From PVC group bacterium (GTDB taxonomy: Bacteria; Auribacterota; Erginobacteria; Erginobacterales; Erginobacteraceae): DNA of 64,000 nt. The stretch is taken from contig JAXGWO010000001.1 in NCBI GenBank assembly GCA_040773245.1, forward strand, positions 6,498-70,497, given 5' to 3'. Shown one piece after another: positions 3,114 through 61,490 of the stretch; position 1 is the first letter of the stretch, and each line of letters opens with the position of its first letter. A program made the position numbers and the translations under genes. The notes below the pieces were generated by a model, which saw only the letters and a list, made by a program, of their open reading frames with translations, was not told where the DNA came from and ran no database searches.

Positions 3114-3118
3114 AAAAC

Positions 3119-3270
3119 TTCACCGCGGAGGCGCGGAGGACGCGGAGAAAGATATAGTTCTATTATTTCCGCCGGATAAATTTTCGGGAAAGATTATAAT
3201 TTCGGAATTGCAAATATTCCGGGAAAAATAGCTAACATAAATTCCGCGTCCTCCGCGCCTCCGCGGTGAA
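3119..3270. repeat. GC-rich 30-bp terminal-inverted-repeat element, copy 1 (arms at about 3119-3148 and 3242-3270, AT-rich core of about 95 bp)
   Basis: The left arm is TTCACCGCGGAGGCGCGGAGGACGCGGAGA and the right arm is its reverse complement, TCCGCGTCCTCCGCGCCTCCGCGGTGAA. The core is strongly AT-rich against the roughly 68% GC background. The element fills the gap between the malic enzyme stop and the fumarase start. Confidence 0.8.
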
Positions 3271-3290
3271 TATATCGATGTACCAGGTGG

Positions 3291-4139: not shown

Positions 4140-4147
4140 TTTAAGAA

Positions 4148-4457
4148 TTCACCGCGGCGGCGCGGAGGACGCGGAGAGGGGATCGTTGTTTATGTTATGA
4201 GTTCTCTTCTGTTTTGTACGAGCAAGCGGCATTAGTATAATCCGCAGTATTGCCGGAAGATCGGTAACGGAGCAATGGAGTGATGGAGTAGTGGAGTGAT
4301 GGGGACAAACACAATACCCAATAAATCCATTGCTCCAACACCCCAACCCGCGGAATTCACTGAACTTGGCTGACCGGACACGTTGTTTCCCACGCTAAAT
4401 AGATGAGAACCATTTTTAGAATCATTTTCTCCGCGTCCTCCGCGCCTCCGCGGTGAA
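4148..4457. repeat. GC-rich 30-bp TIR element, copy 2 (arms at about 4148-4177 and 4428-4457, core of about 250 bp that includes TGGAGTG-type heptamer repeats)
   Basis: Same arm sequences as copy 1. The core contains agcaatggagtgatggagtagtggagtgatgggg ... ccattgctccaacaccccaacc. The right arm overlaps the annotated GTG start of the downstream GT2 gene. Confidence 0.8.
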
Positions 4458-5824: not shown

Positions 5825-5825
5825 T

Positions 5826-5860
5826 GGGGAGTGGGGAGTAGGCAGTGGGCAGTAGTGAGC
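5826..5860. repeat. Short copy of the modular composite repeat (GGGAGTGGGGAGTAGGCAGTGGGCAGTAGTGAGC module)
   Basis: It shares the GGGAGTGGGCAGTAGGCA core with the repeats at 51.5, 53.3, 58.4 and 61.3 kb. It contains the GTG start (5845) of the downstream metallophosphoesterase ORF. Confidence 0.7.
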
Positions 5861-6837
5861 GGCGGGCCAACCGGCCGCGCACCAGGAGGAAACGGACCGG
5901 GAAGCAGGCCTGGGAGCGTCCGCTGCCCCCGGTTGACCGGCAGGCTCTCGCTCTCCCCGGGGACTCCGAATTCGTCTTCCGTTTCGCCGTCTACGGCGAC
6001 AACCAGCGGGGGATCCCGATCCACCGCCGGATCGCCCGGAATATCCTGATCTCGGGGGCGGAGGCCGTCCTCCACGTCGGCGATTACGTCCAGGACGGGA
6101 AGAAAGCCGAGCAGTGGGACGAGCAGTTTCTCCGTCCGGCCCGGTTGCTTCTCCGGCACACCCTCTTTCTCGGCGTCCAGGGCAACCACGACAAGGACAG
6201 TCCCCGCTACTACGAGATCGTCCGTCCCCCAGGAGGGAATTCCTGGTTCAAGGCCGCCCGGCCCCCGGTCGCCTTCTTCGGGCTCGACTCCAACCGCCGC
6301 CTGCCGGAGCAGTCCGGCTGGCTGGCGGGGGAACTGGCCGGGACCGCCGAACCCTGGCGGGTTGTCTTCTTCCACGAGGCCCCCTACGCTTCCTCCTGGC
6401 CCTGGCCGGGCGGGGCGCTCAAGACCCGCCACCACTTCCTCCCGGTGCTGGAGGAGGGCGGGGTCGATCTCGTCTTCGCCGGGCATATCCACAACTACGA
6501 GCGGTTCCACAGGGAAGGGATCCCCTACCTCATCACCGGCGGGGGCGGAGACACCCTGGCCAAGCCGGAACAGCTGAAGAACCCTTACCTGATCTGGTCG
6601 GCGAAGAAGCACCACTTCTGCACCGCCGACGTCTACCCTGACCGGATCGTGGTCCTGGCCCGCGACCTGGCCGGGGTCCCCTTCGACGGGGTGATCGTGG
6701 AGAAGGGCGGCCCGCGGGAGATCGAGCTGGAAACCCGGCGGGGCTACACCGGCCCCCGGCCGGCCTCTTTCCCCAACCAGCTCGGGGGAAGAACCAATCC
6801 TTCACCGCTCTTATTTTACAAAAGCGGTATGACTTGA
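5845..6837 (+). CDS. Calcineurin-like metallophosphoesterase (purple-acid-phosphatase-like)
   Basis: Metallophosphoesterase motifs are present: FAVYGDNQ, HVGDYVQDG, GNHD, FFHEAPY and GHIHNYER. The start is a GTG inside the repeat. Confidence 0.75.
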   Translation: MGSSERRANRPRTRRKRTGKQAWERPLPPVDRQALALPGDSEFVFRFAVYGDNQRGIPIHRRIARNILISGAEAVLHVGDYVQDGKKAEQWDEQFLRPARLLLRHTLFLGVQGNHDKDSPRYYEIVRPPGGNSWFKAARPPVAFFGLDSNRRLPEQSGWLAGELAGTAEPWRVVFFHEAPYASSWPWPGGALKTRHHFLPVLEEGGVDLVFAGHIHNYERFHREGIPYLITGGGGDTLAKPEQLKNPYLIWSAKKHHFCTADVYPDRIVVLARDLAGVPFDGVIVEKGGPREIELETRRGYTGPRPASFPNQLGGRTNPSPLLFYKSGMT

Positions 6838-19164: not shown

Positions 19165-19203
19165 GGGATACTCCAGGAAACACGGTTCTGACTTGAGCGA
19201 ACT

Positions 19204-19272
19204 GGAGTAGTGGAGTGTTGGAGTATTGGGTGGCTATTCCCAACCCCACCACTCCATCACTCCACCACTCCA
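19204..19272. repeat. Imperfect inverted repeat built from TGGAGTG-type heptamers
   Basis: It reads ggagtagtggagtgttggagtattggg ... cccaaccccaccactccatcactccaccactcc. It is related to the core of TIR element copy 2 (4271-4348). Confidence 0.6.
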
Positions 19273-19339
19273 TTCAGGCTCAATATCTGGCTTACTGGCT
19301 GTTCACCACCCATACGAAACGGGCTGGCAATCTTCAAAC

Positions 19340-25143: not shown

Positions 25144-25262
25144 TTAGCATTCATCACTTAACCCTGGGCCGATCTCGCCCGGCATCAAGCCGGATATCAT
25201 TTCAAAGATTATCCGGCACCGGACGAAATTAGCAAGAATAAACGGGCCGGGGTCACGCTTCC

Positions 25263-49373: not shown

Positions 49374-49482
49374 CAGCCGTCCGTGGGAAGATTATCCTGC
49401 TGGCGGCGTTTTCAAACCGGGTGGCGATTTTCGAAGTACAAGTCTTTCCCAACTAAAATTTTTCCGAAGGAAAAATTTTACA

Positions 49483-50436: not shown

Positions 50437-51536
50437 CCCCCCCGCCCGGGAAACCGAAACTGGCTTTCGTGGTCAAGTACTACCGCCCGATGCCGCGGCT
50501 CTCGGGGATTCTCCGCTTCGCGATCGACCTGGTCGAGAACCTGGAGGCGGAGTTCGAGATCCGGGTCTTCACCAGCCGCTACTCGCCGGAGGTCCCGGAA
50601 TACGAGAGGTGCCGCGGCCACGAGATCGTCCGCCTGCCGGGCCCCTTTCCCTTCCGGGCCGGATGGTCGGCCGGGAAGTGGGACCCCGACCTGACCGTCT
50701 TCGGGTCGGGATTCTGGCGATCCTGGTTCCTCCTGCCCTACTGGTTCCTCTTCCGTTGCGGCCTGGGGCGGGCAAACGGACCCGTAATCCTGGCCCAGTT
50801 CACCAATATGACCGGCCGGTTCTTCCGGCTGCTCCGCCTCCTCCGCCCCCGCCCGGCGGCGGTGATCGCCCTCACCGAGCCGCTCCGGGAGCGGTGGGAG
50901 AAACTCCTCCCCGGACTGACCGCCTTCATCCCCGCCGGGATGGCGCTCCCCTCCCCGGAACAAAAGTTCCCGGACCCGGAGATCCCCCCCTCCCCCTTCC
51001 GGATCGGGTTCTTCGGGCACCTGGAGCCCCACAAGGGGCCGGATATCCTGCTGAGAATCTATAAGGAACTCAATCCGCCGGGGACCGACCTGATGATCAA
51101 CGGGGTGGGAGAGATGGAGGAGGAACTCCGGCGGGATTCCCGGGGCTGGAAGAATATCGCCATCCAGGGCTACGTCCCGGAGATCGACCCCTGGATCCAC
51201 TCCTGCAAGCTGATGGTCTTCCCCTACCGCTCCAGCGTCTCGGTCCTCGGCTACTCGCGGGCGGCCCTCGACGGCCTGGCCGCCGGCATCCCCCTGATCG
51301 TCACCTCCTCCCCCGCCCTCGCCCCCCTGGTCCGGGACGGTGAGAACGGCTATGTCTGCCGGAACGAGGAGGAGATCAAGGAGAAGATCCGGGCCGTCAT
51401 CGCCGACCCGGGCCTCCGGAAAAAGCTCGCCGCCGGCGCGAGGCGGGCCGCCGAAGAGTACGACATCCGCCGGATCGCCGGGCGGTGGTCGGAGTTGTTG
51501 CGGAGGGTGGGGGGGATAGTAAGCAGTGAGCAGTAA
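50433..51536 (+). CDS. Glycosyltransferase family 1/4 (GT-B)
   Basis: The C-terminal GT4 motif region reads GYVPEIDPWIHSCKLMVFPYRS...GLAAGIPLIVTSSP...DGENGYVC. Its last codons and its stop lie inside composite repeat A. Confidence 0.75.
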   Translation: MTPPPGKPKLAFVVKYYRPMPRLSGILRFAIDLVENLEAEFEIRVFTSRYSPEVPEYERCRGHEIVRLPGPFPFRAGWSAGKWDPDLTVFGSGFWRSWFLLPYWFLFRCGLGRANGPVILAQFTNMTGRFFRLLRLLRPRPAAVIALTEPLRERWEKLLPGLTAFIPAGMALPSPEQKFPDPEIPPSPFRIGFFGHLEPHKGPDILLRIYKELNPPGTDLMINGVGEMEEELRRDSRGWKNIAIQGYVPEIDPWIHSCKLMVFPYRSSVSVLGYSRAALDGLAAGIPLIVTSSPALAPLVRDGENGYVCRNEEEIKEKIRAVIADPGLRKKLAAGARRAAEEYDIRRIAGRWSELLRRVGGIVSSEQ

Positions 51537-51778
51537 GCAGTGAGCAAAGTGCAAAGAGCATAGCGCATAGCGCCAGGGCATAGAGATTCGCGGTTGAGAT
51601 GGGGAGTGGGCAGTAGGCACAAGTCGATCCAATCCGTGTAATCTGTGTAATCAGTGGACTAAAAAGAGGGCGGGGCGAGGTTGATTAAAATAATTCGTGG
51701 CAATTAGTGGAATTAGTGGACAGCCAAAGGGGGCGCGGCGGGGGTTGATGAAAATTAATTCGTGGTAATTCGCGGACG
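51511..51778. repeat. Modular composite repeat, copy A (long form, about 270 bp)
   Basis: The module order is GCAGTGAGCAGTAAGCAGTGAGC, then GCATAGCGCATAGCGCC, then CGCGGTTGAG, then GGGGAGTGGGCAGTAGGCA, then CAAGTCGATCC, then GTGTAATCTGTGTAATCAGTGGA, then AGAGGGCGGGGCG, then TTGATTAAAA, then AATTCGTGGCAATTAGTGGAATTAGTGGA. It is AT-rich relative to the genome. Confidence 0.8.
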
Positions 51779-51782
51779 GAAG

Positions 51783-53255
51783 ATGAAGATGGTGAGAGGG
51801 ACAGCCTACCTGGCCGCCGCCGAGGTGGTCTTCGTGATCAGCGGCTGGATCATCCACGTCGGCTCGAAGCGCATCCTGGGATTGGTCGAGTACGGGACCT
51901 TCGGCATTCTCCTCTCCCTCCTCACCCACTACCGGATCTTTCTCGCCACCGGGGTCAACCGGGCGGTCTCCCGGGAGATCTCCCGGGAACCCTCCCGGGA
52001 CCGATCGATCCGGAGGGGGGCGCTGAAACTCCAGCTGGGCCTGGGCCTGGGCCTGGGCCTGGCGGTCTGGCTGGCGGCGCCGGGGCTTTCCGGGATCTGG
52101 GGGGATCCGCGGTTCACCGGCTATATCCGGCTGACCGCCTTCTTCCTCCCCGCCTTCGGGATCTACTCGGTCTACCGGGGCGTCCTCAACGGCCACACCC
52201 TCTTCGGGGCGGAGGCCCGCGTATCCATCATCTATTCCGGCCTCAAGGTCGCCGGCCTCTTTTCCCTCATCTTCCTCTTCTCCGCGCTGGGCCGAGACCG
52301 CGTCTCCGGGGCGGTCGGCGGGTACCTGGCCGCCGTCACCGGGGCGGTCTTCCTGGCCCGGGCGCTCTGCCCGCCAGCCGGGGGGGAGGACGGCCCCCCG
52401 TTCCCGCTGGGGAAGATCGCCGCCTTCGCCTTCCCGGTGGTTCTCTTCTCCTTCATCATCAGCCTGGTCCAGCATCTGGACCTCTACTTCGTCCGCGCGC
52501 TGCTGCCGGAGGAAGCCGAGGCGGCGGGGCTTTACACCTGCGCCCAGCAGTTCGCCCGGATCCCCTATATGTTCCTCTACGCGCTGAGCCTGACCATCTT
52601 CCCCGTGGTCGCCGGACGGATCGCGATCGCCGGCGGGGAAACGGCCGCGGCCGCCACCATTCGGCGGGCCCTGAGGGGAGGGCTGCTGGTGGTCCTGCCG
52701 CTGGCCGCCCTGATCGGCGCCAACGCCAGATCCCTGCTCGGCTGGGTTTACGGCCCGGACAGCGCGGCCGGGTCGGCGGCCCTGGAGGTCCTGATCTTCG
52801 GCCAGACCCTCCTCGCTCTTCTCCTGGTCCTGGCCACCGTCATCACCGCCCGGGGGCGGCCCTGGGTCTCCTTTTCCCTGGTCACCGCCACCCTGGCGCT
52901 GGCCGGGATCCTGAATAATTACCTGGTCCCGGAAGCCGGGATCCGGGGAGCGGCGATCGCCACTACCGTGGCCGCCGGGTTGGGGATGGCGGGGGCGGGG
53001 GTGATCGTCTACCGTCTCTTCGGGGCCCTCTTCCCGCCGGCCGCCACCGCCAGGATCGCGGCCGCGGCGGCCCTGGTCTTCGCCCTCGGCCGCTGGTGGG
53101 CGCCGGCCGGCTGGCTGCTTCCCCCGGCCCTGGCGACCCTGGCCGGGGTCTACCTGCTCGTTCTCTTCGGGCTGCGGGAGCTGACCCCCGGCGACGGGAA
53201 GATGATCCTCTCCCTCTTCCGCAAGCCTCCCCCCGCCCCCGGTATAGTCCACTAA
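51783..53255 (+). CDS. Polysaccharide flippase/exporter of the MOP superfamily (Wzx/MATE-like)
   Basis: It has about 12-14 TM helices, and the length and helix spacing are typical of Wzx/MurJ/polysaccharide biosynthesis proteins. The start was taken as MKMVRG. It is bracketed by inverted copies of the composite repeat. Confidence 0.6.
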   Translation: MKMVRGTAYLAAAEVVFVISGWIIHVGSKRILGLVEYGTFGILLSLLTHYRIFLATGVNRAVSREISREPSRDRSIRRGALKLQLGLGLGLGLAVWLAAPGLSGIWGDPRFTGYIRLTAFFLPAFGIYSVYRGVLNGHTLFGAEARVSIIYSGLKVAGLFSLIFLFSALGRDRVSGAVGGYLAAVTGAVFLARALCPPAGGEDGPPFPLGKIAAFAFPVVLFSFIISLVQHLDLYFVRALLPEEAEAAGLYTCAQQFARIPYMFLYALSLTIFPVVAGRIAIAGGETAAAATIRRALRGGLLVVLPLAALIGANARSLLGWVYGPDSAAGSAALEVLIFGQTLLALLLVLATVITARGRPWVSFSLVTATLALAGILNNYLVPEAGIRGAAIATTVAAGLGMAGAGVIVYRLFGALFPPAATARIAAAAALVFALGRWWAPAGWLLPPALATLAGVYLLVLFGLRELTPGDGKMILSLFRKPPPAPGIVH

Positions 53256-53480
53256 TTTCACTAATTACCACGAATTTTTTAATCAACCCCGCCCCGCCCT
53301 CTTTTATTCGTCCACTGATTACACAGATTACACGGATTACACGAATTGGATCGACTTGTGCCTACTGCCCACTCCCCCCCTCAACCGCGAATCCCGCAAA
53401 TCTATACGAACCTGTCCCCCGTTAACTTCGAACTTTGAACTTCGAACTTTGAACTTCTTACCCCACTCCCCATTCCCCGA
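53249..53480. repeat. Modular composite repeat, copy B (inverted relative to copy A)
   Basis: Its reverse complement matches copy A over about 140 bp, from CGCGGTTGAG through GTGTAATCAGTGGA to AATTCGTGGTAATTAGTGAAATTAGTG. It also carries a tandem CGAACTTTGAACTT x2 and a CCCCACTCCCCATTCCCC module. It starts at the flippase stop codon. Confidence 0.8.
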
Positions 53481-53547
53481 TTGACTCTTCGGCTCAACAA
53501 ATATATTCTTAACGCCTAACGTTAACTTTCGCCCAAGAGACCGCGCC

Positions 53548-54228
53548 GTGAAACTCTCGATCGTCGTCCCGATCTACAACGAGGAGAAGACCCTCCGCGA
53601 GATCCTGAAGAAGATCCTCGACCAGCCGCTGGATAAAGAGGTGATTCTGGTCGATGACGGTTCGACCGACGGAACCCGGGAGATCCTCCGCACCCTCGAC
53701 CACCCTGAGGTCCGGGTCATCCTCCTCCCCGAGAACCGGGGCAAGGGGGCGGCCCTCCGGGCGGGGTTCCGGGAAGCCGCCGGGGAGATCGTCATCGTCC
53801 AGGACGCCGACCTGGAGTACAACCCGGAGGAGTACCCCTCCCTGGTCCGTCCGATCGAGGAGGGGGTGGCCGACGTGGTCTTCGGGGCCCGGTTCCTCGG
53901 CGGCCCCCACCGGGTCCTTTACTTCTGGCACTACTGCGGCAACAAGCTCCTGACCCTGATCACCAACATCCTCTTCAACATCAACCTCAACGATATGGAG
54001 ACCTGCTACAAGGTCTTCCGCCGGGAGGCCCTGGAGGGAGTGGAGATCAAGTCCGACCGGTTCGGCTTCGAACCCGAGATCACCGCCAAGATGGTCAAGT
54101 CCGGCCAGCGGATCTACGAGATCCCGATCTCCTACTTCGGCCGCACCTACGAGGAAGGGAAGAAGATCACCTGGAAGGACGGCCTGGTCGCCCTCTATAC
54201 CCTGCTGCGTTTCCGCTTCTCCGGCTGA
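53548..54228 (+). CDS. GT2 glycosyltransferase, DPM/DPG-synthase-like (polyprenyl-phosphate sugar synthase type)
   Basis: GT2 motifs: MKLSIVVPIYNEEKTL...EVILVDDGSTDGT...VQDADLEY (DxD). It is soluble and about 226 aa long, like Dpm1 catalytic subunits. The start is a GTG. Confidence 0.8.
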   Translation: MKLSIVVPIYNEEKTLREILKKILDQPLDKEVILVDDGSTDGTREILRTLDHPEVRVILLPENRGKGAALRAGFREAAGEIVIVQDADLEYNPEEYPSLVRPIEEGVADVVFGARFLGGPHRVLYFWHYCGNKLLTLITNILFNINLNDMETCYKVFRREALEGVEIKSDRFGFEPEITAKMVKSGQRIYEIPISYFGRTYEEGKKITWKDGLVALYTLLRFRFSG

Positions 54229-54278
54229 ATGCCACTCCCGGGCCCGGCCCGCCGCCGATAACAATCGGAGCGACCCCA

Positions 54279-56219
54279 GTGCGCGATCTCCCCGGATTCC
54301 GGGTCCTCTGTCCCCTCTTCTGCCTGCTCCTGGCCGCGATGGCCGTCTTCACCGAGTGGGAGGTTCACGGGCCGTCCACGATCCGGCACCACCTGGAGTG
54401 GCTGGAGACAACCATCGGTCCCGGGGGACCGTGCTTCCAGCTCTCCGGAAGAGCGCTGCTTTCCTCAAGCCGGCTCGCGGTGCGCGCGGGACTGCCGGCG
54501 GCGTGGGGGTTCACCACCCTGCGATTTGCCCAGAACGCGCTGATCCTGGGCCTGGCCCTGGCCTGGTGGCGGCGACTGGCCGTCCCGCCGCCCCGGCGGC
54601 TGATCGGCCTGCTGATGCTGGCCTGGGGACTGCTCTACGCCTTCCGGGAAGGTGGCATCGAGACCGGGCTCTTCTGGGCCGCGGCCTGGATCCTGGCCGG
54701 GATCATTCTCCTGGACTCCGGCCGGAGGAATTTCTACCCCCTGCTGGCTTTCACCGGCGCCCCCTGGAGCGTCTTCTCGGTTATCCTCCCCTTCCTGCCC
54801 CTGGCCGGGAGCGGGGGCGGCCGCGGACGGACCTGGCGGCTCGCCCTCCTCTCTCTCCCCGCTTGGCTGGCCGGGGCCTGGTTGTTCGGCAATCCCCCCA
54901 GCCGGCCCTGGCCCCCGGTCTCCTGGGGACACCGGCCCGGGTTCGACCTGCTGGCCTTCAACCTCGCCCACAGCCTGACCTGGGTGAGACTGATCTGGCT
55001 GGCCAACATCCTCCCCCTCCTCGCCCTGGCCCGGCTGGCGGAGTGGCCGAGGCGGCTGCGGAGATTGCTCCCGGTCTCCCTGATCCCGGCGGGCGTCGCC
55101 CTCCTGGCATACTTCTTCCCCGAATACCGGGTGATCGTCATCCCCCTGGCCGCCTGCCTGATCCCGGGGTTCCTGCTCCTCCCGGCGAAGCCGAACCCCG
55201 CCTTTTCGCGCCTCCGGAGGGCACTGCGCTCCGAAGGGCTGCTGATCGCCCTGCTCGCCCTGGCCGCCCTCTACTCCCAGCTCTGGGTTCTGGGGGGGGT
55301 GGGGGGGCGGTACCTGGGGGAATCCCAGCCGGAACGCCACCGGGAGGTGATGGCCGGAACCGCTTCCAGCCCCTGGCGCTACCGCGTCTTCTCCGAATAC
55401 CTGGTGGAGGGAAGCCTGCGGCTGGGCCGGGCGGCCGGAGTCGAAGAACCGGGGCCGGTCTTCGCCCTCTTCCGCCTCCTCCAGAACCTGCTGATCTTCT
55501 GGCTGGCGGCCAGGCTCTACCGCACCTGGGGATTTGCCCCGGACCAGCGGGCGATCGGCCTGGTCCTGGCCGGCTGGGGGATGATGCACGCCTTTTACAA
55601 CAGCGACCTCTGCTTCAGCACCTACACGGACCTGATCATCTACCTTCTCGGGACCCTCTCCGTGATCAAGGGGAGGATAGGCTGGATTGTTCCGTTGACC
55701 GCCATCGCCGCCTTAAACCGGGAGACCGGCGTGCTGCTCCCCGCCCTGCTCATCCCCGGCGCCCTTAGGAGGGAAGGCCGCCGGTCCTGGATGCTCTTCC
55801 TGGCCGCCGCCGGGGTGTTCTTCGCGATCTTCTTCTCGCTCCGGCTTCTCCTGCTCCCGGGAGGTGATTTCGCCCAGGCCTGGGGTGGACCCGGCTGGCC
55901 GAGACTGCTGGGCAATCTCTCCAACCCCCTGTTCTGGCGAAACTTTTTTCTGCTCGCCAACTTGTTGCCGCTGGCCGGCATATTGGCAGTGCGCCGCTGG
56001 CCGCGCCAGCTTCGAGAATTTTTCATTGTTTTGGTCCCGGCCTGGTTGTTCCTGCATCTGTATGCCGCTTATGCGGAGGAATCAAGGATCTTCCTGGTCC
56101 CGCTCTTCCTGGGGTTTGTCCCCGCCGTCCTCTGCCTGCTGACGGGCGGGGACCCGGCGGGAAGGTCTCCTGACCGCCCCCCGGTTCGGGACGGCGGGAT
56201 TTTAGCCCTTGACTCCTGA
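54279..56219 (+). CDS. Large polytopic membrane protein, possibly a GT-C-type glycosyltransferase or polymerase
   Basis: It has about 16 or more predicted TM helices and sits within the glycan locus next to two Dpm1-like GT2 genes. No catalytic motif could be assigned confidently. Confidence 0.4.
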   Translation: MRDLPGFRVLCPLFCLLLAAMAVFTEWEVHGPSTIRHHLEWLETTIGPGGPCFQLSGRALLSSSRLAVRAGLPAAWGFTTLRFAQNALILGLALAWWRRLAVPPPRRLIGLLMLAWGLLYAFREGGIETGLFWAAAWILAGIILLDSGRRNFYPLLAFTGAPWSVFSVILPFLPLAGSGGGRGRTWRLALLSLPAWLAGAWLFGNPPSRPWPPVSWGHRPGFDLLAFNLAHSLTWVRLIWLANILPLLALARLAEWPRRLRRLLPVSLIPAGVALLAYFFPEYRVIVIPLAACLIPGFLLLPAKPNPAFSRLRRALRSEGLLIALLALAALYSQLWVLGGVGGRYLGESQPERHREVMAGTASSPWRYRVFSEYLVEGSLRLGRAAGVEEPGPVFALFRLLQNLLIFWLAARLYRTWGFAPDQRAIGLVLAGWGMMHAFYNSDLCFSTYTDLIIYLLGTLSVIKGRIGWIVPLTAIAALNRETGVLLPALLIPGALRREGRRSWMLFLAAAGVFFAIFFSLRLLLLPGGDFAQAWGGPGWPRLLGNLSNPLFWRNFFLLANLLPLAGILAVRRWPRQLREFFIVLVPAWLFLHLYAAYAEESRIFLVPLFLGFVPAVLCLLTGGDPAGRSPDRPPVRDGGILALDS

Positions 56220-56271
56220 TGGAATACGTTTATTTTCCCCGGAACAAACTGATTATTTCCAGGAGCGAATT

Positions 56272-57384
56272 ATGCCCGACATCATATCCCGGCTGCGCGA
56301 GAACCCGAAGTTCCACCGCTTCCTGGAACCGGTCGACCTCTCGGCCGACTTCCGGGACGCCACCTACTTCCTGAGGAAGGACGGGACGATGGTCTTCTCC
56401 GAAGGGTACTACCACGGCATCGAAAAACCGCTTCCGGAACGCGAGGTGGTCTCCCACATCGTCTTCATCCCCTGGAATGATCGGCGGCCGGGGCCGGACT
56501 ATGCCCGGAAGGATATCTTCGGGCAGCTCTACGAGAACATCACCAAGGAGATAATGAACAATAACCCCCTCGACCGCTTCTATCCCCTCCAGCTCGAGCG
56601 GTACATCGAGGTCGACCCCTCCCAGCGGGAGAAACGGCGCCCGGTCTACGCCCGCTACAAGTCCCTGGTCCCGGTGTCGGAACTGATCGGCTGCTTCCCC
56701 ACCCGCCACTCCCTCCAGGCGATCATCGACCGGGCCGGCGAGGAAGAAGCGGCGGACAACATCCGGGTGGTGACCGAACACACCGCCGAGCTGCTGGGAA
56801 TCGAAGTCGGCCGGATCGGGATCTCCGGCTCGCTTTCCCTGGGGACCTACGCCGACCCCCACGATGTCGATTACGTCATCTATGGAACATCGGCGGAGGT
56901 CAGGCGGATGGTTCGGTTTATGCAGAAGCTGACCGACACCGAAGAGAAGCGCCGGGTCCGCGAGTTCGGGAAATACTGGCCGATCCGGTTCTGGGACTGG
57001 GCGGGGGGAAAGAAGTTTATGATCTGCCCCTTCTTCTCCTACCTCGACCCGGAAGAAGCCCCGCTGCGGAACTTCGACTGCGAGGATCTCGGACCGGCGG
57101 AGATCACCGCCCGGATCGCCGACGACACCCACAACGCCTTCAATCCGACCTATCTGCTGATCGAGGGGGTGAAACTCGACGGCCGGGACTGCCCCGGCAT
57201 TACCCGGCTGGTCCTCTACCACGGCGGGGAGCGGGGGGACTGGCGGGAGGGTTACCGGGTCCGGGCCCGGGGCAACCGCGTCCGGATCCGGACCTGCCGG
57301 ATGGAAGCGGGGAAGAGAATCACCCGGGAGGAGTTCGAGGCCCTGCTGGTGAACAACCTCGACCGGGTGAAGAAGGTCGGGTGA
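56272..57384 (+). CDS. Uncharacterized NTase-signature protein, paralog 2
   Basis: It has GISGSLSLGTYADPHDVDYVIYG plus the family motifs ATYFLRKDGTMVFSEGYYH, YWPIRF, ICPFFSY and LVLYHGGERGDWREGYRVRARG. The start was refined to MPDIISRL, which has an RBS aggag. Confidence 0.5.
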   Translation: MPDIISRLRENPKFHRFLEPVDLSADFRDATYFLRKDGTMVFSEGYYHGIEKPLPEREVVSHIVFIPWNDRRPGPDYARKDIFGQLYENITKEIMNNNPLDRFYPLQLERYIEVDPSQREKRRPVYARYKSLVPVSELIGCFPTRHSLQAIIDRAGEEEAADNIRVVTEHTAELLGIEVGRIGISGSLSLGTYADPHDVDYVIYGTSAEVRRMVRFMQKLTDTEEKRRVREFGKYWPIRFWDWAGGKKFMICPFFSYLDPEEAPLRNFDCEDLGPAEITARIADDTHNAFNPTYLLIEGVKLDGRDCPGITRLVLYHGGERGDWREGYRVRARGNRVRIRTCRMEAGKRITREEFEALLVNNLDRVKKVG

Positions 57385-57425
57385 GAGGAACCGGGAATAT
57401 CCGCAACTTCGGGGAGCGTATTTCA

Positions 57426-58451
57426 ATGACCAGTTTTTTCGACCAGGTAAAATACAACGATAAGTTTCGGGACTTCGTCCTCCCGATGGAAGAGCTGGCC
57501 CTGATCCGGGACGCCACGATCTTCGTCCACCAGGACGGCTTCCTTCTCTTCTCGGAAGGTTACTGCCACCCGCCGGGCAAACTGATCTGCAATATCATCT
57601 ACATCCCGGACCCGAAGGGGAAGAAGGAGGTCTTCGGCCTCCCCTACCGCTCGATCATCAAGCGGGACCAGGACGGCGAGGAGGCCTGGGTCAACTACGA
57701 GTCCCAGCTGGAGATCTACCGGGAACTGGCTCCGGAGTCCCAGGTCGGCAAACCTCCCTACGCCCGCTACAAGTGCCAGTTCGACCTCGCCGACCTGGTC
57801 GGCTTCGTCGATCACCGCCGCTCGCTGAAGAAAGCCCGGGAACTCTCCCCGGAGATCGACCAGGCGATCCACAACGTCGCCGGGATGCTCCGGATCGACC
57901 CCGAAACCATCGGGGTCACCGGTTCGCTCTCGCTCGGCAACCTGAAGACCGCCCACGATTTCGACCTGGTCTTCTACGGCACCGTCGCCGAGAGCTGGAA
58001 GATCGTCGACCAGATCTACCGGATCGTCGAAGACCCCAAGCGCCAGGTCTTCGAGATGGGGATGCTCTGGGCGATCCGTTTCTTCGACGACTGGGGGAAT
58101 ATGATCTGCCCTTTCTTCTCCTACACCGACCTCTCCGAGATTCCGCTCAAGGATTTTTCGATGGAGATGGAGGAAGGCGGGCTGGAGATGGAGGGCACGG
58201 TGACCGACGACCGGCACACCTTTTATATGCCCTCGGTCCTCCGGCTGGCCGAGTCTTCCATCCCGGGCCGCCGGGACCTGTCCGAGCTGGACCTGATCCT
58301 CTACCACGGGGGACTCCGCGGCGAATACCGGGTCGGCGACCGGGTCCGGGCCCGGGGCGACCTGGTCCGGGTGACCGGCCGGAATGGTTCTTATCCCGCC
58401 TTCCTCTGCACCAACCTGAGCGAGACCGGGAAGGTGGGCAGTGGGGAGTAG
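57426..58451 (+). CDS. Uncharacterized NTase-signature protein, paralog 3 (in tandem with paralog 2)
   Basis: It has GVTGSLSLGNLKTAHDFDLVFYG plus the family motifs ATIFVHQDGFLLFSEGYCHPP, ICPFFSY and LILYHGGLRGEYRVGDRVRARG. Its stop codon lies inside composite repeat C. Confidence 0.5.
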   Translation: MTSFFDQVKYNDKFRDFVLPMEELALIRDATIFVHQDGFLLFSEGYCHPPGKLICNIIYIPDPKGKKEVFGLPYRSIIKRDQDGEEAWVNYESQLEIYRELAPESQVGKPPYARYKCQFDLADLVGFVDHRRSLKKARELSPEIDQAIHNVAGMLRIDPETIGVTGSLSLGNLKTAHDFDLVFYGTVAESWKIVDQIYRIVEDPKRQVFEMGMLWAIRFFDDWGNMICPFFSYTDLSEIPLKDFSMEMEEGGLEMEGTVTDDRHTFYMPSVLRLAESSIPGRRDLSELDLILYHGGLRGEYRVGDRVRARGDLVRVTGRNGSYPAFLCTNLSETGKVGSGE

Positions 58452-58503
58452 GGAGTAGGCAGTGGGCAGTGGACAGAGAGCAGAGCGCATAGAGCATAGC
58501 GCC
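58432..58503. repeat. Modular composite repeat, copy C (short form)
   Basis: It reads GGTGGGCAGTGGGGAGTAGGGAGTAGGCAGTGGGCAGTGGACAGAGAGCAGAGCGCATAGAGCATAGCGCC, which corresponds to the GGGAGT/GCAGTGGGCAG and GCATAGCGC modules. Confidence 0.75.
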
Positions 58504-58540
58504 AGTAACTAACCATCAGCGGACTGAACAGGGATTAAAA

Positions 58541-59827
58541 ATGAAAACAAAGACCAAATCCGTGAAGACAACGAAACCCCCAGCCGAGACCAACCCGCTG
58601 AGGCTGGCCCTCAGCCAGCTCGACCGGGTGGCGAAGAAGATCAAGCTCGACCCCTGCATCCACGAAAAGCTCAAGCACCCCAAGACCATCCTGATCGTCT
58701 CGGTCCCGATCAAGATGGACAACGGGAAGCTGAAGGTCTTCACCGGCTACCGGGTCCAGCACAACATCGACCGGGGCCCCTCCAAGGGGGGGATCCGTTA
58801 CCACCCCGAGGTCTCCCTCGACGAGGTCCAGGCCCTGGCGATGTGGATGACCTGGAAGTGCTCGGTGATGGGTTTGCCCTACGGGGGGGCGAAGGGCGGG
58901 GTCTGCTGCAACCCGAAGAAACTCTCCGAGCGGGAGCTGGAGAAGATCACCCGCCGCTTCACCACCGAGATCACCCCCTTCATCGGACCCCGGAAGGACA
59001 TCCCCGCCCCCGACGTCTACACCAACCCCCAGACGATGGCCTGGATGATGGACACCTTCAGTATGCACTCGGCCTACGCCGTTCCCGGGGTAGTCACCGG
59101 CAAGCCCCTGGAGATCGGCGGTTCCTACGGCCGGAACGAAGCCACCGCCCAGGGCTGCGTCTTCGCCGTCGAGGAGTTTCTGAACTACCGGGGGAAGGAA
59201 CTGGCCGGGTCCACGGTAGTCATCCAGGGCTACGGGAACGCCGGGTCCTTCGCCCACAAGATCGCCCAGGCCGAGGGAGCCAAGGTGATCGCCGTCTCCG
59301 ACAGCAAGTCCGGAATCGTCAACCCCGCCGGTCTCGACTACCCGGCCGTCTCCGCCTTCAAGGAAAAGACCGGCTCGGTGAAGAACTTTCCCGGGGCCAG
59401 GAACATCACCAACCGGAACCTCCTGGAGCTGGAATGCGACGTCCTGATCCCGGCGGCCCTGGGCAACCAGATCACCGCCGCCAACGCCCCCCGGATCAGG
59501 GCCGGCCTGGTCGCCGAGGCCGCCAACGGCCCCACCACCGAAGAGGCCAACGCCGTCCTCCACCGGCGGGGGATCCCGGTCATCCCCGACATCGTCGCCA
59601 ACGCCGGGGGGGTGGTGGTGAGCTGCTTCGAGTGGGCCCAGAACCTGATGGGCTACTTCTGGACCGCGGAGGAGGTGAGCTGCCGCCTCCAGGACATTAT
59701 GGTCCTGGCCTGTCGGAAGGTCTGGGAACTGGCGCAGAAGGAAAAGATCGACCTCCGCCTGGCCGCTTATATGGTGGCAGTGAGCCGGGTGGCCGAAGCC
59801 GCCCGCCTCCGCGGCATCTACCCCTGA
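58541..59827 (+). CDS. gdhA: Glutamate dehydrogenase (Glu/Leu/Phe/Val dehydrogenase family, about 428 aa)
   Basis: The catalytic region reads KGGIRYHPEVSLDEVQALAMWMTWKCSVMGLPYGGAKGGV. The Rossmann motif is GYGNAGS, and GGVVVSCFEWAQN is present. Confidence 0.9.
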   Translation: MKTKTKSVKTTKPPAETNPLRLALSQLDRVAKKIKLDPCIHEKLKHPKTILIVSVPIKMDNGKLKVFTGYRVQHNIDRGPSKGGIRYHPEVSLDEVQALAMWMTWKCSVMGLPYGGAKGGVCCNPKKLSERELEKITRRFTTEITPFIGPRKDIPAPDVYTNPQTMAWMMDTFSMHSAYAVPGVVTGKPLEIGGSYGRNEATAQGCVFAVEEFLNYRGKELAGSTVVIQGYGNAGSFAHKIAQAEGAKVIAVSDSKSGIVNPAGLDYPAVSAFKEKTGSVKNFPGARNITNRNLLELECDVLIPAALGNQITAANAPRIRAGLVAEAANGPTTEEANAVLHRRGIPVIPDIVANAGGVVVSCFEWAQNLMGYFWTAEEVSCRLQDIMVLACRKVWELAQKEKIDLRLAAYMVAVSRVAEAARLRGIYP

Positions 59828-59843
59828 GCCGGCCCCAAATATA

Positions 59844-60021
59844 TCACCGCGGAGGCGCGGAGGGCGCAGAGAAATATTTTTATTAGTCTGGCCTGGGAAA
59901 GACTGCTGACCTCGGAGCGGCAGAAAAGCGCACCGAGAATTATTCCCGGATGATCCAGCCCGCGAACCCGGCCGACAATCCCCAACCACCCTCCCCGCGT
60001 CCTCCGCGTCTCCGCGGTGAA
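59844..60021. repeat. GC-rich 30-bp TIR element, copy 3 (arms at about 59844-59874 and 59991-60021, AT-rich core of about 115 bp)
   Basis: The left arm is TCACCGCGGAGGCGCGGAGGGCGCAGAGAAA and the right arm is CTCCCCGCGTCCTCCGCGTCTCCGCGGTGAA. It fills the gap between the gdhA stop and the convergent paralog-4 stop. Confidence 0.8.
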
Positions 60022-60031
60022 TTCCCGCGGG

Positions 60032-61084
60032 TCAGCCGGCGGATCTTTCCTGCTTGCCCTTCAGGTAGGGGACGCCCTCCCGGAAGCGCTCGAGCTCGAT
60101 GTCGAAGCCGTCGACCACGGCCAGGGCCGGGGTCTTCTTTCCGTCCTTGACCAGGTTGACCAGGCGGCCCTTGATGTGGAGCCGCAACCCCTCGCGGAAC
60201 TCGCCCCGGACCGCCCCGTCGTAGATGATCAGCCGAATGTCATCGGCCTTCCGCCCGTCGAGATATACGTTCTCCAGCTCGAGCACCACGGGAACGTAAA
60301 GCGAGTGGAGGTTGTCGGCCACCGTCCCGTAGGCCTCCACGCTCTCCTTCACCAGTTCCACCTCGCAGTCCCGGACCGGGGCGTCGAGGAGGTTGCGGTA
60401 GACGTAGAAAGTGCAGACTTCCTCTTGATCGACGTAGATCTTGAGCGGCCAGAACTTGCCGTACTCCACCACCTGGTGCTCCGGTTTGCTGTAAACGATC
60501 CCCCAGAGCTTCCGGACGGTGGCGAGGTTCTCCTCCGGGGTCCCGAAGAAGACCAGGTCGATGTCCGCCCCCTGCCTCCCCAGGGCCGAGGAACCGGTTA
60601 TCCCCAGGTGCCCGAGGGGGACCTCGAAGAGTTCGGAGGTCATCCGGACCACCTCGTCGACCCGGGGATAATGGGCCATCACGTACTTGAGCGCCTCCTG
60701 GTCGTTGAAGTAGCCGACGAAACTCTCCCGGGGGAAGGCCACCTGGTACTCGGCCAGGATCAGCTGGTGGGAGTCGGGGGGCAGGTCGGGGAAGAGCCGG
60801 TAAAGCTTGCCGATCTGGTCGCGGTGGGAGACGTAAACCTCCTCCCCGTCCCGGATCTCCTTGACGATGCTGGAGTACCTCCGGCCGTGGATATCCTTCT
60901 CCCCGTCAGGATCGGGGTAGTAGATCAATTTCCCGACCACCGAGTCCGGGGGATGCCAGTACCCCTCGGTATAGACGAAACTTCCGTCGCGGCGCATCAG
61001 GTAGGTGGTGTCGAGCGGCCCCAGCTTCAGCTCCGACATCGGCCGCAGCAGTTCCCCGATCACTTCATCGAATCTGTCGCCCAT
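60032..61084 (-). CDS. Uncharacterized NTase-signature protein, paralog 4
   Basis: It has GITGSSALGRQGADIDLVFFG plus the family motifs TTYLMRRDGSFVYTEGYWHPP, FWPLKIY and LIIYDGAVRGEFREGLRL. Its N-terminus MGDRFDEVIGELL matches paralog 1 (MTRDRFDEVIKKFL). Confidence 0.5.
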   Translation of the reverse strand: MGDRFDEVIGELLRPMSELKLGPLDTTYLMRRDGSFVYTEGYWHPPDSVVGKLIYYPDPDGEKDIHGRRYSSIVKEIRDGEEVYVSHRDQIGKLYRLFPDLPPDSHQLILAEYQVAFPRESFVGYFNDQEALKYVMAHYPRVDEVVRMTSELFEVPLGHLGITGSSALGRQGADIDLVFFGTPEENLATVRKLWGIVYSKPEHQVVEYGKFWPLKIYVDQEEVCTFYVYRNLLDAPVRDCEVELVKESVEAYGTVADNLHSLYVPVVLELENVYLDGRKADDIRLIIYDGAVRGEFREGLRLHIKGRLVNLVKDGKKTPALAVVDGFDIELERFREGVPYLKGKQERSAG

Positions 61085-61097
61085 CGCCAGCTTCCTC

Positions 61098-61490
61098 CAC
61101 TGATTATCATCGTTTGATCCGCCCCCTCGCCTCTCCCCCTTTTTTATCCACTAATTACACGAATTACCTCTAATTGAGTTTTATTCCCCCTACCTCGCCC
61201 TCTTTTGAAACCACGAATCTCCACTGATCTTCACGGGCAAACTCTACCTCGCCCCCGTTTTCAGTCCACTGATTACACAGATTACACGGATCGGTCGATT
61301 TGTTCCCACTGCCCAATCCCCATCTCAACCGCGAATCCCGCGAATCTCTGCGAATGAATATAATCACTATCGGTATCGCTATCGGTATCGAGACTAGTTG
61401 GGTTGCACTATGCTCAATGCGCTCTGCTTACTGCTCACTGGGCTCTATGCGCTATGCGCTTTTCCTCATTCCCCACTCCCCAAACCCGCC
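61098..61490. repeat. Modular composite repeat, copy D (longest copy, about 390 bp, in the same orientation as copy B)
   Basis: It carries all the modules: CCACTGATT, CCACTAATTACACGAATTAC, TCCACTGATTACACAGATTACACGGAT, CACTGCCCA, CTCAACCGCGAATCCCGCGAATCT, tandem TATCGGTATCGC x2, GCGCTCTGCTTACTGCTCACTG, GCGCTATGCGC and CCCCACTCCCC. It overlaps the stop of the large GDH-like gene. Confidence 0.8.

Follow-up and report, generated by a model that had tools for sequence, protein, structure and literature searches.

The intergenic repeats described here are ordered mosaics of short tandem words, and in our judgment there is about an even chance that they are BIME/MITE-like mosaics of heptamer and nonamer simple-sequence arrays, a known kind of repeat, which would have grown by slippage and nested insertion. 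Three long and two short copies, in both orientations, share ordered modules within the window, by which we mean the whole 64-kb stretch of DNA that was analyzed (Table 1). All five copies listed in the initial annotation were found at their coordinates and in both orientations. No known repeat family explains a 30-base array, found in these repeats, that recurs across lineages.

Table 1. Repeat copies, their modules, and neighboring features in the window.
Feature	Position	Strand	Remarks
Long composite copy 1	51511..51790	+	G-rich strand on +; occupies the GT1/Wzx-type flippase spacer
Copy 1 heptamers AGTAAGC/AGTGAGC	51518-51546	+	Include GT1 stop TAA 51534-51536
Copy 1 GCATAGC x2	51558-51573	+
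Copy 1 GATTCGCGG	51585-51593	+
Copy 1 GGGGAGTGGGCAGTAGGCA	51601-51619	+
Copy 1 nonamer array and tip, AATCCGTGT AATCTGTGT AATCAGTGGAC	51631-51659	+
Copy 1 A-run and G-box	51660-51681	+
Copy 1 second nonamer array	51692-51721	+
Copy 1 G-box	51726-51745	+
Copy 1 third array	51755-51777	+
Flippase start	GTG 51762 or ATG 51783	+	3' of copy 1 modules
Long composite copy 2	53247..53480	-	Reverse complement of copy 1
Copy 2 tip GTCCAC	53247-53252		Tip and first nonamer overlap the flippase gene end
Copy 2 far-end heptamers AACTTCG	53424-53457
Copy 2 far-end heptamers CCCCACT	53461-53478
Promoter-like TTGACT-17-TATTCT	53481..53509	+	Between copy 2 and GT2; flanking context, outside the repeat
Long composite copy 3	61098..61490	-	G-rich strand on minus
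Short copy	58432..58503	+	Heptamers only: GGGCAGT/GGGGAGT/AGGGAGT, then GCATAGA/GCATAGC; upstream of the glutamate dehydrogenase gene
Short copy	5825..5862	+	Heptamers only: TGGGGAG TGGGGAG TAGGCAG TGGGCAG TAG
Tandem G-rich heptamer arrays	5825-5853, 51518-51546, 58434-58476, 53461-53478, 61411-61460
Second family	3113..3271		Inverted pair TTCACCGCGGAGGCGCGGAGGACGCGGAGA/complement around 96 nt of AT-rich DNA; malic-enzyme/fumarase spacer
Second family	4142..4463		Identical inverted arms around 250 nt of unrelated DNA; ATGGAGTG octamer array 4275-4302 inside
Second family, third member	59837..60024		Convergent-gene spacer; interior unrelated to the other two
Octamer-word hairpin	19190..19275		TGGAGTAG TGGAGTGT TGGAGTAT ... 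CCACCACTCCATCACTCCACCACTCCA; co-directional spacer

The module grammar is fixed and consists of heptamers, GATTCGCGG, GGGCAGT, and a nonamer array ending in GTGGAC, after which a series of A-run, G-box, and nonamer array is repeated. A core of ∼130 nt can be aligned among the three long copies with identical module order, and the same order was found again in another genome, L028. Copy 2 is 93% complementary to positions 51585-51656 of copy 1 over 72 nt, and copy 3 follows the order of copy 1 with an additional ATCGCTATCGGT array at 61363-61390. The sharing of ordered modules proved to be real, with expected counts from dinucleotide shuffles of the window of 0 to 0.14: GTGTAATCTGTGTAATCAGTGGA has three exact matches and one with three mismatches (0.00 expected), GGGAGTGGGCAGTAGGCA has 10 matches at ≤3 mismatches (0.08 expected), CGCGAATCCCGCGAATCT has two (0.14 expected), and GCATAGCGCATAGCGC has six (0.01 expected). 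The internal tandem duplication noted earlier was also recovered, with periods of 7 and 9 and arrays of two to four units. Strand asymmetry is strong in each copy, one strand having 33-36% G versus 12-16% C. The copies had been called strongly AT-rich islands, which holds in relative terms (the spacers are 48-53% GC versus ∼67% for the window) but is overstated by the adverb. By eye, positions 58434-58468, a candidate G-quadruplex site, show four runs of three or more G with loops of 4, 4, and 10 nt; G-runs are absent from most other modules (AGTGAGC, GCATAGC, and the nonamers). The same genome has also been assembled independently from short reads (L001), and that assembly covers 53427-61165 of the window and ends inside copies 2 and 3, as is expected if more copies are present elsewhere in the genome.

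The copies carry no credible gene, consistent with the earlier report that they lack an ORF, and they take up whole spacers between co-directional or convergent genes. A census of the window placed arrays in nine of 25 co-directional or convergent spacers and in none of the five divergent ones. The genes that flank the arrays are unrelated housekeeping genes. The location at gene boundaries is correct, but the copies do more than touch the neighboring genes, because they overlap last codons and supply stops. Stops of upstream genes lie inside copies (TAA 51534-51536, TAG 58449-58451, and, on the minus strand, TGA 61466-61468), and the final five to six codons are covered by the heptamer ends. 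In four of four cases, a sense heptamer end adjoins or overlaps the stop codon of the gene upstream. For example, the copy at 5825-5862 begins directly after the TAA (5822-5824) of a DUF2934 gene, and the heptamer end of copy 3 overlaps the last codons and stop of a large NAD-glutamate dehydrogenase gene. At the other end of copy 3, the last nonamer reads AATCAGTGGA(G), with G where C is usual, and a 350-aa gene starts 13 nt downstream of it (61084). The reversed copy 2 provides the flippase stop TAA (53253-53255), and its heptamers, upstream of GT2, are G-rich on the non-coding strand. No transposase, including the Y1 family, was found among the 29 of 50 called window genes that were scanned, which represent 60% of the window and lie outside ∼12.4-38.9 kb and 49354-50436. 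Likewise, no transposase, RAYT, or Y1-family gene was found among the best 25 of 119 families found for 104 motif-flanking genes at 32 loci.

A second, related repeat family in the window is built from inverted arms. The arms at 3113-3271 are 28 nt long, match at 100%, and are themselves tandem octamers. The interiors of this family are unrelated despite identical arms, which is atypical of a MITE family.

Relatives of this genome show that the repeats are dispensable and variable at a given gene junction. In L036, the GT1-flippase-GT2 locus (81% amino acid identity) carries composites at both junctions with the orientations kept and the modules different, in L045 a repeat is present at one junction only, and in L046 the junctions are empty, with genes that overlap or lie within ∼20 nt of each other. 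The repeats are therefore not a fixed, conserved regulatory sequence. Nor are they a mere local duplication, since composite homologs (E values of 1e-11 to 1e-22) are present in the PVC/Auribacterota MAGs L010, L011, L014, L026, L028, and L033. The two copies on either side of the flippase gene are more closely related to each other than to any other copy, at 93% over 72 nt in the window and at 97% over 63 nt in L036, a pattern that selection for pairing or local gene conversion would fit at least as well.

The proposal that the repeats could be mobile stands in part. A nonamer array of L036 is interrupted by a ∼215 bp element with terminal inverted repeats and a 7-bp duplication, TAATTAG, arranged as GTGTAATTAG[ACCTTACTCGAAAAG...CTTTTCGAGTAAGCTC TAATTAG]TGGAC, and an intact copy is found ∼360 nt downstream. 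At least one module type is thus a true insertion. Similarly, a 33-nt GC hairpin lies within a nonamer arm of L003 with AATCTG at either side. Terminal inverted repeats were also observed in hairpin-type nonamer units of L021, L023, L029, L030, and L031, as well as in the TTCACCGCGGAGG... pairs of the window. The three long window copies, however, are single polar arms that do not have inverted repeats at both ends, and no target-site duplication is visible at the nonamer hairpin units or at the window copies.

The most widely distributed module is the 30-base array (AATCNGTGT)n-AATCAGTGGAC. It is intergenic in at least nine other lineages. Its carriers include Bacteroidota, Spirochaetota, Planctomycetota, Acidobacteriota, Marinimicrobia, Cloacimonadota, Chloroflexota, PVC/Auribacterota, and an alphaproteobacterium, as well as at least one phage-like contig. 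A motif search of 596 Gb with 20 specified bases returned 32 genome loci versus ∼1 expected by our own estimate. The array was not seen in Firmicutes, Actinobacteria, or Gammaproteobacteria. Six positions left unspecified are conserved as well (n = 33; A25 A29 T32 C27 at -7 to -4, G31 at -2, and C26 at +1), and so is the non-repeating terminal unit AATCAGTGGAC, in 26-33 of the 33 instances. The GTGGAC end faces the nearest gene: in 36 arrays a gene boundary is within 60 nt of this end but not of the opposite end, and the reverse holds in seven. The two array orientations are about equally frequent. An inverted partner is present within 260 nt in ∼10 of 33 instances, several of which are then followed by a T-run. 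No description of this motif was found in the literature. Arrays at orthologous junctions are still clean in L036 although the proteins are only 81% identical, and this, together with the near invariance of the 30-nt module, suggests purifying selection or a conserved partner rather than junk. We tentatively propose that very small intergenic elements of an unrecognized class have (AATCNGTGT)n-AATCAGTGGAC as their conserved end, facing outward, a possibility that we rate at clearly less than even. If this is true, conservation of a 30-nt non-coding word would imply a trans-acting partner common to these lineages, which could be a DNA/RNA-binding protein that recognizes the elements or an enzyme, encoded by the host, that mobilizes them, and the heptamer/STRR repeats would belong to the same system.

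Several published repeat classes resemble parts of these composites. Intergenic G-rich heptamer repeats include the cyanobacterial STRRs, GGGAATC in Xanthomonas, and GGGGA(C/T)T in Nostoc; their function is not established and an origin by slippage has been hypothesized (PMC4692102). As here, these are tandem 7-nt G-rich units that are mostly intergenic and co-directional, rarely lie between divergent genes, and are close to the end of the upstream gene with the G-rich strand as the coding strand, so the modular architecture that had been called unusual is only in part new (PMC4692102). Other points of likeness are the occurrence of some inverted pairs, loci that are kept in related species with varying length and sequence, and the lack of a tie to IS elements or to a gene class. 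Both the tandem, G-rich, intergenic 7-nt units and the placement rule were thus found in our repeats. In L011, ATTGGGG is repeated three times, which we take to be the complement of the STRR1 unit. In contrast to the published arrays, the heptamers here are one module of an ordered composite that also has G-boxes, unique linkers, and arrays of 8- and 9-nt units, the words are for the most part different, the hosts are PVC/Auribacterota-like, and the nonamer module is present in many lineages, which is unreported for the published heptamers.

Of the resemblances to MITE, REP, and BIME elements raised in the initial annotation, that to BIMEs is one of architecture and not of membership. Like the BIMEs of enterobacteria, the composites are extragenic mosaics of short conserved motifs in a set order, occupy operon spacers and sites after genes but not divergent promoter regions, occur in both orientations with inverted pairs that form hairpins, and have a species-specific consensus at partly conserved loci. 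They differ in that the blocks are tandem direct words and not imperfect palindromes, with no GTAG-type head and no RAYT gene seen among the scanned genes. RAYT-dependent REP/REPIN elements, whose unit is an imperfect palindrome of 20-40 nt with a conserved 5' tetranucleotide, were rejected as an identity; the arms are head-to-tail direct repeats that do not self-fold, and no Y1-transposase family was seen among the scanned window genes or the listed flanking families. Elhai et al. in 2008 reportedly described small dispersed repeats in Nostoc that are very small and nested. Such repeats and MITEs share with ours the small size, the absence of an ORF, inverted end arms that face outward to genes, presence or absence at orthologous sites, and insertion of an element into a repeat with a short duplication (L036, L003), whereas the repeats described here have no known autonomous parent, no duplication at nonamer units, interiors that are unrelated between identical arms, and a host range of several phyla. 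To our knowledge, Correia elements of Neisseria have no known transposase. The Correia element is short and intergenic, with a 26-bp inverted repeat, TATAGTGGATTAACAAAAATCAGGACAA (PMC5039591). This repeat holds TAGTGGAT and AATCAGGAC, word-like strings similar to TTAGTGGAT and AATCAGTGGAC. Relative to the tip, however, GTGGA has opposite orientations in the Correia element (TATAGTGGATTAA... tips) and in our repeats, and neither the TA duplication nor the conserved core of Correia elements was found in ours; we treat the resemblance as coincidence.

Our working model, which we hold with roughly even confidence, is that the copies are non-autonomous mosaic intergenic repeats assembled from tandem 7-, 8-, and 9-nt words with an RGTG core. 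Replication slippage would create the arrays and alter their length, small inverted-repeat elements would insert into or beside them to produce the mosaic, and a putative trans-acting enzyme or gene conversion would spread the copies and keep them alike. The (AATCNGTGT)n-AATCAGTGGAC nonamer array would serve as the outward-facing terminal module. The copies may persist because the word-rich sequence, which has little C on one strand and little G on the opposite one, is harmless inside operons, with stop triplets in the heptamers that close all three frames and single arms that are nearly unstructured as RNA.

The copies are not structured RNAs, promoters, or intrinsic terminators. The idea that they are transcribed as sRNAs or terminators is contradicted for single copies, with fold z-scores of -0.8 to +0.2, no Rfam match, and no terminator signal. 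Specifically, single copies fold no better than shuffles (z = -0.31, +0.24, and -0.77), at -0.09 to -0.25 kcal/mol per nt versus -0.43 ± 0.07 for the window background. Rfam gave no match over the whole window at gathering score and none within the repeats at E values up to 10 in 51400-53650. In a scan of 50000-62500, no sigma-70-like promoter was found inside any copy, and the sole terminator-like match inside a copy is a weak 6-bp stem (51575-51561, minus strand). The promoter-like sequence beside copy 2 has a counterpart at the same place in L036, which reads TTGACT, 17 nt, then TATCCT.

Pairs of copies behave differently from single ones. The arms at 51585-51730 and 53249-53393 pair into a duplex of ∼140 bp (-234 kcal/mol versus -66 for shuffled arms), and it is likely that transcribed inverted arms form long duplexes, either as spacer hairpins (L003) or across the flippase gene. 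Effects on mRNA through duplex formation have been reported for REP elements, and setting expression within operons is a role reported for REP hairpins. In a selected cis-acting RNA, which we consider unlikely, a G-strand arm that precedes a start codon would pair, within the polycistronic transcript, with a C-strand arm that follows a stop codon, across a spacer or a whole cistron. The resulting duplex would be processed by RNase III or would block exonucleases, and in this way would set relative expression within the operon. The flippase duplex is consistent with this, as are the inverted partners and T-runs of the cross-lineage instances and arrays that stay clean despite deep divergence. 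L036 likewise retains the bracket although the modules differ, in the form of nested pairs of 63 nt (97%), 33 nt (94%), and 45 nt (73%). Also consistent is the Marinimicrobia locus L003, where each gene has the layout stop-AAACCACWGATTTCAC...ACAG, spacer, CTGTGTAATCWGTGGTT, RBS, start, and where one spacer beats shuffles in folding (z = -3.0). However, inverted composites in L028 lie upstream of two convergent transcription units and cannot pair in one RNA, so a rule that the tip faces the gene would by itself yield the bracket. Moreover, many arms are unpaired, including copy 3 and 5825-5862, the L046 relative lives without the elements, and RNA pairing does not account for the presence of identical words in unrelated lineages.

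Pure simple-sequence repeats, in which 7-9 nt arrays arise in place by slippage from a narrow, convergent, tolerated vocabulary with neither mobility nor function, are in our view rather improbable. The variation in unit number from two to four and the way words grade into one another (AATCAGT, AATCAGTGT, AATTAGTGG, GATTCGCGG) agree with such an origin. Heptamer simple-sequence repeats are over-represented in many bacteria, at the same loci in related species with varying length, and a heptamer reported for Helicobacter is GTGATTA (PMC4692102). This word is identical to that of the AGTGATT arrays in L002 and L015. Slippage does not explain the non-repeating, conserved terminal unit AATCAGTGGAC, however, and it leaves over the fixed order of different modules across genomes, the inverted pairs, and the nested insertion with target duplication.

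Still less probable is that the copies are DNA binding arrays for a sequence-specific protein that polymerizes on head-to-tail 7-9 bp sites, the candidates being an omega/ParG-type ribbon-helix-helix protein, a nucleoid protein, or DnaA on the box-like tip TGTGGAYAA. The head-to-tail periods of 7-9 bp point in this direction, and AGTGATT is presumably the omega heptad WATCACW on the opposite strand. In addition, tips such as TGTGGACAA and AGTGGATAA match the DnaA box TGTGGATAA at 7-8 of nine positions, and the near-equal orientations would be expected of a DNA-level role. Against this, only ∼6 of 36 tips are GTGGATAA, upstream nonamers are poor matches to the DnaA box, a large variety of words would require many proteins, the same junctions in relatives lack arrays, and no candidate protein gene is linked to the arrays among the scanned window genes and listed flanking families. 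Finally, an inversion switch in which the ∼145 bp inverted arms flip the flippase gene for phase variation of a surface polysaccharide is very improbable, given that the gene has the same orientation in the window and all 11 orthologous loci, no recombinase gene was found nearby among the scanned genes, and other copies do not bracket single genes, even though the locus makes a polysaccharide and 93-97% identical long inverted repeats flank the same gene in two species.

Intergenic repeats of short tandem words in bacteria, known since the discovery of the cyanobacterial STRRs, are used in strain fingerprinting, and we know of no accepted function or origin for them. What is new here is that the words form ordered composites with a defined polarity to gene ends, that turnover of the composites at fixed gene junctions proceeds one module at a time, and that one module is nearly identical in very distant bacteria. 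The elements break short-read assemblies, and the stop codons that they provide affect gene calling in metagenome-assembled genomes. If a shared partner underlies the conservation, cultured carriers in Persicobacter, such as Persicobacter psychrovividus NBRC 101262, and in Asticcacaulis would make it possible to test where these repeats come from and what they do.

All five repeat copies reported in the initial annotation are present on direct inspection, and the three long copies, which were proposed to share a module order, do align with the same order (alignment A1). These composites are built of heptamers, linkers, a nonamer array, an A-run, and a G-box. The nonamer array consists of head-to-tail 9-nt words, e.g. 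(AATCTGTGT)3AATCAGTGGAC, and its GTGGAC end is referred to here as the tip. Exact and near-exact module counts in the window are far above the dinucleotide-shuffle expectation: the 23-nt nonamer module has three exact occurrences (0.00 expected) and GGGAGTGGGCAGTAGGCA, with up to three mismatches, has ten (0.08 expected). Tandem Repeats Finder returned internal periods of 7 and 9. The GC content of the copies is 48–53% as compared to ∼67% for the window, and strand asymmetry is strong, with 33–36% G and 12–16% C on one strand. A short-read assembly of the source organism (L001) spans 53427–61165 of the window and both of its ends fall inside copies 2 and 3, which is the expected effect of a repeat with further genomic copies.

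The copies occupy the entire spacer between genes. Their heptamer end overlaps the last codons of the upstream gene and supplies its stop codon, and the tip of the nonamer end sits just 5′ of the next start codon. The neighbors are ordinary: a Wzx-type flippase gene, the glycosyltransferase genes GT1 and GT2 on either side of it, and two glutamate dehydrogenase genes. Four neighbors, three after GT2 and a 350-aa gene on the minus strand, have no Pfam match, and TCA-cycle-type genes lie further upstream. The flippase gene is flanked by copies 1 and 2, which are inverted relative to each other. A scan of 29 of the 50 called window genes (those outside ∼12.4–38.9 kb and other than the gene at 49354–50436) turned up no transposase or recombinase. 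Among window spacers of at least 50 nt, word arrays are found in nine of the 25 co-directional or convergent ones and in none of the five divergent ones.

Coordinates of repeat features and repeat-derived stop codons in the window
Feature	Position	Strand	Remark
Long copy 1	51511-51790	+	
Long copy 2	53247-53480	-	
Long copy 3	61098-61490	-	
Short copy	5825-5862		heptamers only
Short copy	58432-58503		heptamers only
Stop codon from heptamer end	51534-51536		TAA
Stop codon from heptamer end	58449-58451		TAG
Stop codon from heptamer end	61466-61468	-	TGA
Flippase stop from nonamer end of reversed copy 2	53253-53255		TAA
Second-family TTCACCGCGGAGGCGCGGAGGACGCGGAGA inverted pair	3113-3271		
Second-family TTCACCGCGGAGGCGCGGAGGACGCGGAGA inverted pair	4142-4463		
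Second-family TTCACCGCGGAGGCGCGGAGGACGCGGAGA inverted pair	59837-60024		
Octamer word array TGGAGTAG/TGGAGTGT	19190-19275		hairpin with complement CCACCACTCCATCACTCC
Octamer word array ATGGAGTG	4275-4302		

The window also contains a second family of word-built repeats, in which three inverted TTCACCGCGGAGGCGCGGAGGACGCGGAGA pairs surround unrelated AT-rich interiors. The arms (30–38 nt) are tandem octamers with GGAGG cores, and pair members lie 96–250 nt apart. A word string resembling these arms, ACACCGCAAAGACGCAGAGAACGCCGAGG, occurs in a Pyrinomonadaceae locus (L008). A word of the octamer arrays, GGAGTGAT, nearly matches the 3′ end of 16S rRNA in complement. Other features of the window concern its genes. 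The two glutamate dehydrogenase genes, less than 4 kb apart, are of different types (58541–59827, 428-aa ELFV; 61466–63934, large NAD-specific). The adjacent genes at 56209–57384 and 57381–58451, both without a Pfam match, are paralogues (57018–57049 versus 58100–58131, 91%) with an inverted relative at 46.8–47.1 kb, in 46709–47740 (inverted repeats I2, I3, and I18). Several large minus-strand ORFs contain coding repeats with a 120-nt (40-aa) period (10219–10872, 12485–13190, 23686–26031, and 29004–29706), which may be candidate beta-propeller-type repeats; Pfam at E 1e-5 gave no match for 8229–10181 or 10195–12387.

A metagenome scan with the flippase protein yielded 11 syntenic GT1-flippase-GT2 loci. 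In L036 (81% amino acid identity, 66% GC), both junctions are occupied by composites that are oriented as in the window but consist of different modules, and alignment is confined to the gene-proximal parts. L045 has a word-rich spacer downstream only. At L046 (66% GC), which lacks repeats at both junctions and thus provides the empty sites that were to be looked for in relatives, the GT1 and flippase genes overlap and the flippase-GT2 gap is ∼20 nt. A clade of ∼50% GC carries different spacer sequences. Since these junctions are filled differently, filled once, or empty, the elements are dispensable and are turning over. Neither outcome that the initial annotation had named as contrary to its proposal applies: the elements are not a local duplication, nor do they represent a fixed regulatory sequence. 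In L037–L043 (∼50% GC), a conserved hairpin, TTTTTTCC(C/G)GRAGGGAAAAAA, replaces the word repeats directly 5′ of the flippase and GT2 start codons; its loop contains a Shine-Dalgarno-like GGAGG, and it could be a candidate translational control element.

Nested insertions were also found. A ∼215-bp element bounded by 15-nt terminal inverted repeats splits one nonamer array of L036; the array also occurs intact ∼360 nt away. The ends of this nested element carry a duplicated TAATTAG. In L003 (Marinimicrobia MAG JABMQW010000103.1), a 33-nt GC hairpin lies inside a nonamer arm with AATCTG on both sides.

The nonamer module extends well beyond the source lineage. In a one-genome-per-species collection, the 20-base pattern GTAATCNGTGTAATCAGTGGA was found at 32 loci, with ∼1 chance match expected by our own estimate; the match at L013 lies inside a gene and is probably due to chance. 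The lineages, as given in record titles for MAGs, are Bacteroidales/Muribaculaceae, Marinimicrobia, Spirochaetes, Planctomycetes, Acidobacteria/Aminicenantes, Cloacimonadales, Anaerolineae, PVC/Auribacterota, and Asticcacaulis (an isolate, as is Persicobacter, below), and the loci range from 35% to 69% GC. Positions left unspecified in the pattern are conserved, namely AATC at −7 to −4 (25–32 of 33 instances), G at −2 (31 of 33), and C at +1 (26 of 33), and the matches therefore form one family, (AATCNGTGT)2-4 ending in AATCAGTGGAC. The motif is flanked by A- or T-runs and adjoins unrelated housekeeping genes, with no family present more than twice (25 of 119 families listed; 32 loci). Homology to the window over the length of a composite (E 1e-11 to 1e-22) was found only in PVC/Auribacterota MAGs and in L002 (Bacteroidales MAG JAQVYY010000011.1, 38% GC). 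The latter contains a gene-poor 3.9-kb tract (1224–5122) of tandem composites, all on one strand, built of AATCNGTGT...GTGGAC, CAGTGAG/CAGTAAG, and AGTGATT arrays. The tract is interrupted by one RhuM-family gene and lies in a polysaccharide locus, with an epimerase gene on one side and, downstream of the tract, a Wzz gene on the other.

Two viral contigs carry GTAATCNGTGTAATCAGTGGA, one of which has terminase- and portal-like genes. On the phage-like contig L035 (IMGVR_UViG_3300050015_001101), which has a portal gene, the motif (3153–3190) lies 11 nt 5′ of a terminase-large-subunit-like gene; phage genomes rarely harbor selfish repeats, and the position of the motif here may therefore be informative. 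A plasmid BLAST gave only two weak matches, both Persicobacter. In cultured Persicobacter psychrovividus, a plasmid carries a motif variant between the bioG and bioC genes. On this plasmid (pPPrrn, L047, 1440–1580), copies of a distinct REP-like hairpin, TCGTAGA-N-TCTACGACCAGAGGT, lie to either side of the array, and several small repeat families therefore share one spacer. In a Spirochaetaceae MAG (L009, ∼3070–3200), at least six tandem hairpin units, CGGACGAAGGAGGCGCGTCCCC, directly follow the motif.

The arrays have a defined polarity. Because calls by the simple gene caller used here are not dependable at intermediate GC, polarity was assessed from symmetric ORF-boundary counts, on the 93 nonamer arrays of the fetched loci and the window other than ten in L002. 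In 36 arrays an ORF boundary lay no more than 60 nt from the GTGGAC end alone, and in seven from the other end alone; thus, the arrays are outward-facing terminal modules. It follows that any gene with an element on each side is automatically enclosed by inverted copies. The boundary near the tip was a same-strand start codon in 30 cases and an opposite-strand stop codon in 27. L003 has eleven arrays in 8 kb, and in nearly every gap between genes the stop codon is directly followed by a C-strand arm, while a G-strand arm, set off from the first by a spacer, precedes the RBS and start codon; one gap has two tandem ∼157-nt units. An inverted partner within 260 nt was found in about 10 of 33 cross-lineage instances, several of them followed by a T-run.

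The suggestion that the copies are sRNAs or terminators was not borne out for single copies. Their folds do not exceed shuffles (z = −0.31, +0.24, and −0.77) and fall well short of the genome background in structure (−0.09 to −0.25 versus −0.43 ± 0.07 kcal/mol per nt), and within the copies the sole terminator-like match is a weak stem of 6 bp. Rfam returned nothing relevant for the entire window at gathering score or for 51400–53650 at E up to 10. No promoter signals were found inside the copies; a promoter-like site, TTGACT-17-TATTCT, immediately follows copy 2, with TTGACT-17-TATCCT at the matching position in L036. A Rho-loading (rut) site on the C-rich strand, an appealing idea in the case of copy 2 with this promoter-like site behind it, was rejected: the repeats lack a general orientation bias and the specific words are left unexplained. 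An RfaH/ops or UpxY-type antitermination signal, considered for the likeness of GCAGTAG/GCGGTAA to ops and the polysaccharide loci of the window and L002, was dropped because flanking genes at the 32 loci are unrelated housekeeping genes and both orientations are about equally frequent. Likeness to DnaA boxes is confined to the tip in a minority of instances, homology to Correia elements is ruled out by tip orientation, and a Nextera or other adapter artefact is rejected, as native genes surround the motif within contigs and the genomes concerned span 35–69% GC. To our knowledge, none of CsrA, Hfq, CIRCE, parS, KOPS, Chi, uptake sequences, integron attC, shufflon sfx, or Tn5/Tn7/IS3 ends fits.

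Based on mosaic order, nested insertions, empty sites, and outward-facing arms, our preferred reading, held with about even confidence, is a BIME/MITE-like non-autonomous repeat whose growth would come from slippage and nested insertion and which operon spacers would tolerate. Against a purely selfish repeat, the arrays are clean at the junctions in genomes that share only 81% protein identity, the arms on either side of one gene closely resemble each other, and many lineages conserve the terminal module; for these reasons three rivals were kept. An RNA-duplex role, by analogy with that reported for REP, seems unlikely: the arms flanking the flippase gene can form a computed ∼140-bp duplex and L036 retains a nested bracket around that gene made of other modules, but the inverted composites of L028 could not pair in one RNA, as they precede two convergent transcription units. 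Slippage that arrives at a convergent vocabulary is quite unlikely, and a putative protein-binding array is improbable. An inversion switch of the flippase gene is very improbable, since flippase orientation is the same in 12 of 12 loci.

A literature search of open-access text with the sequence strings returned only coincidental primers and no paper with these sequences. The heptamer part fits the published G-rich heptamer repeat class of Xanthomonas and Nostoc and follows the same strand rule (PMC4692102). Those repeats are intergenic, mostly between co-directional genes and near the upstream ORF, keep their loci from species to species but vary in length, and are not associated with IS elements; the class is unexplained (PMC4692102). 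As short-word repeats between genes and mosaic elements, the elements described here are of an already known kind; their ordered composite structure, their polarity rule, and the nonamer module shared across lineages are apparently new.
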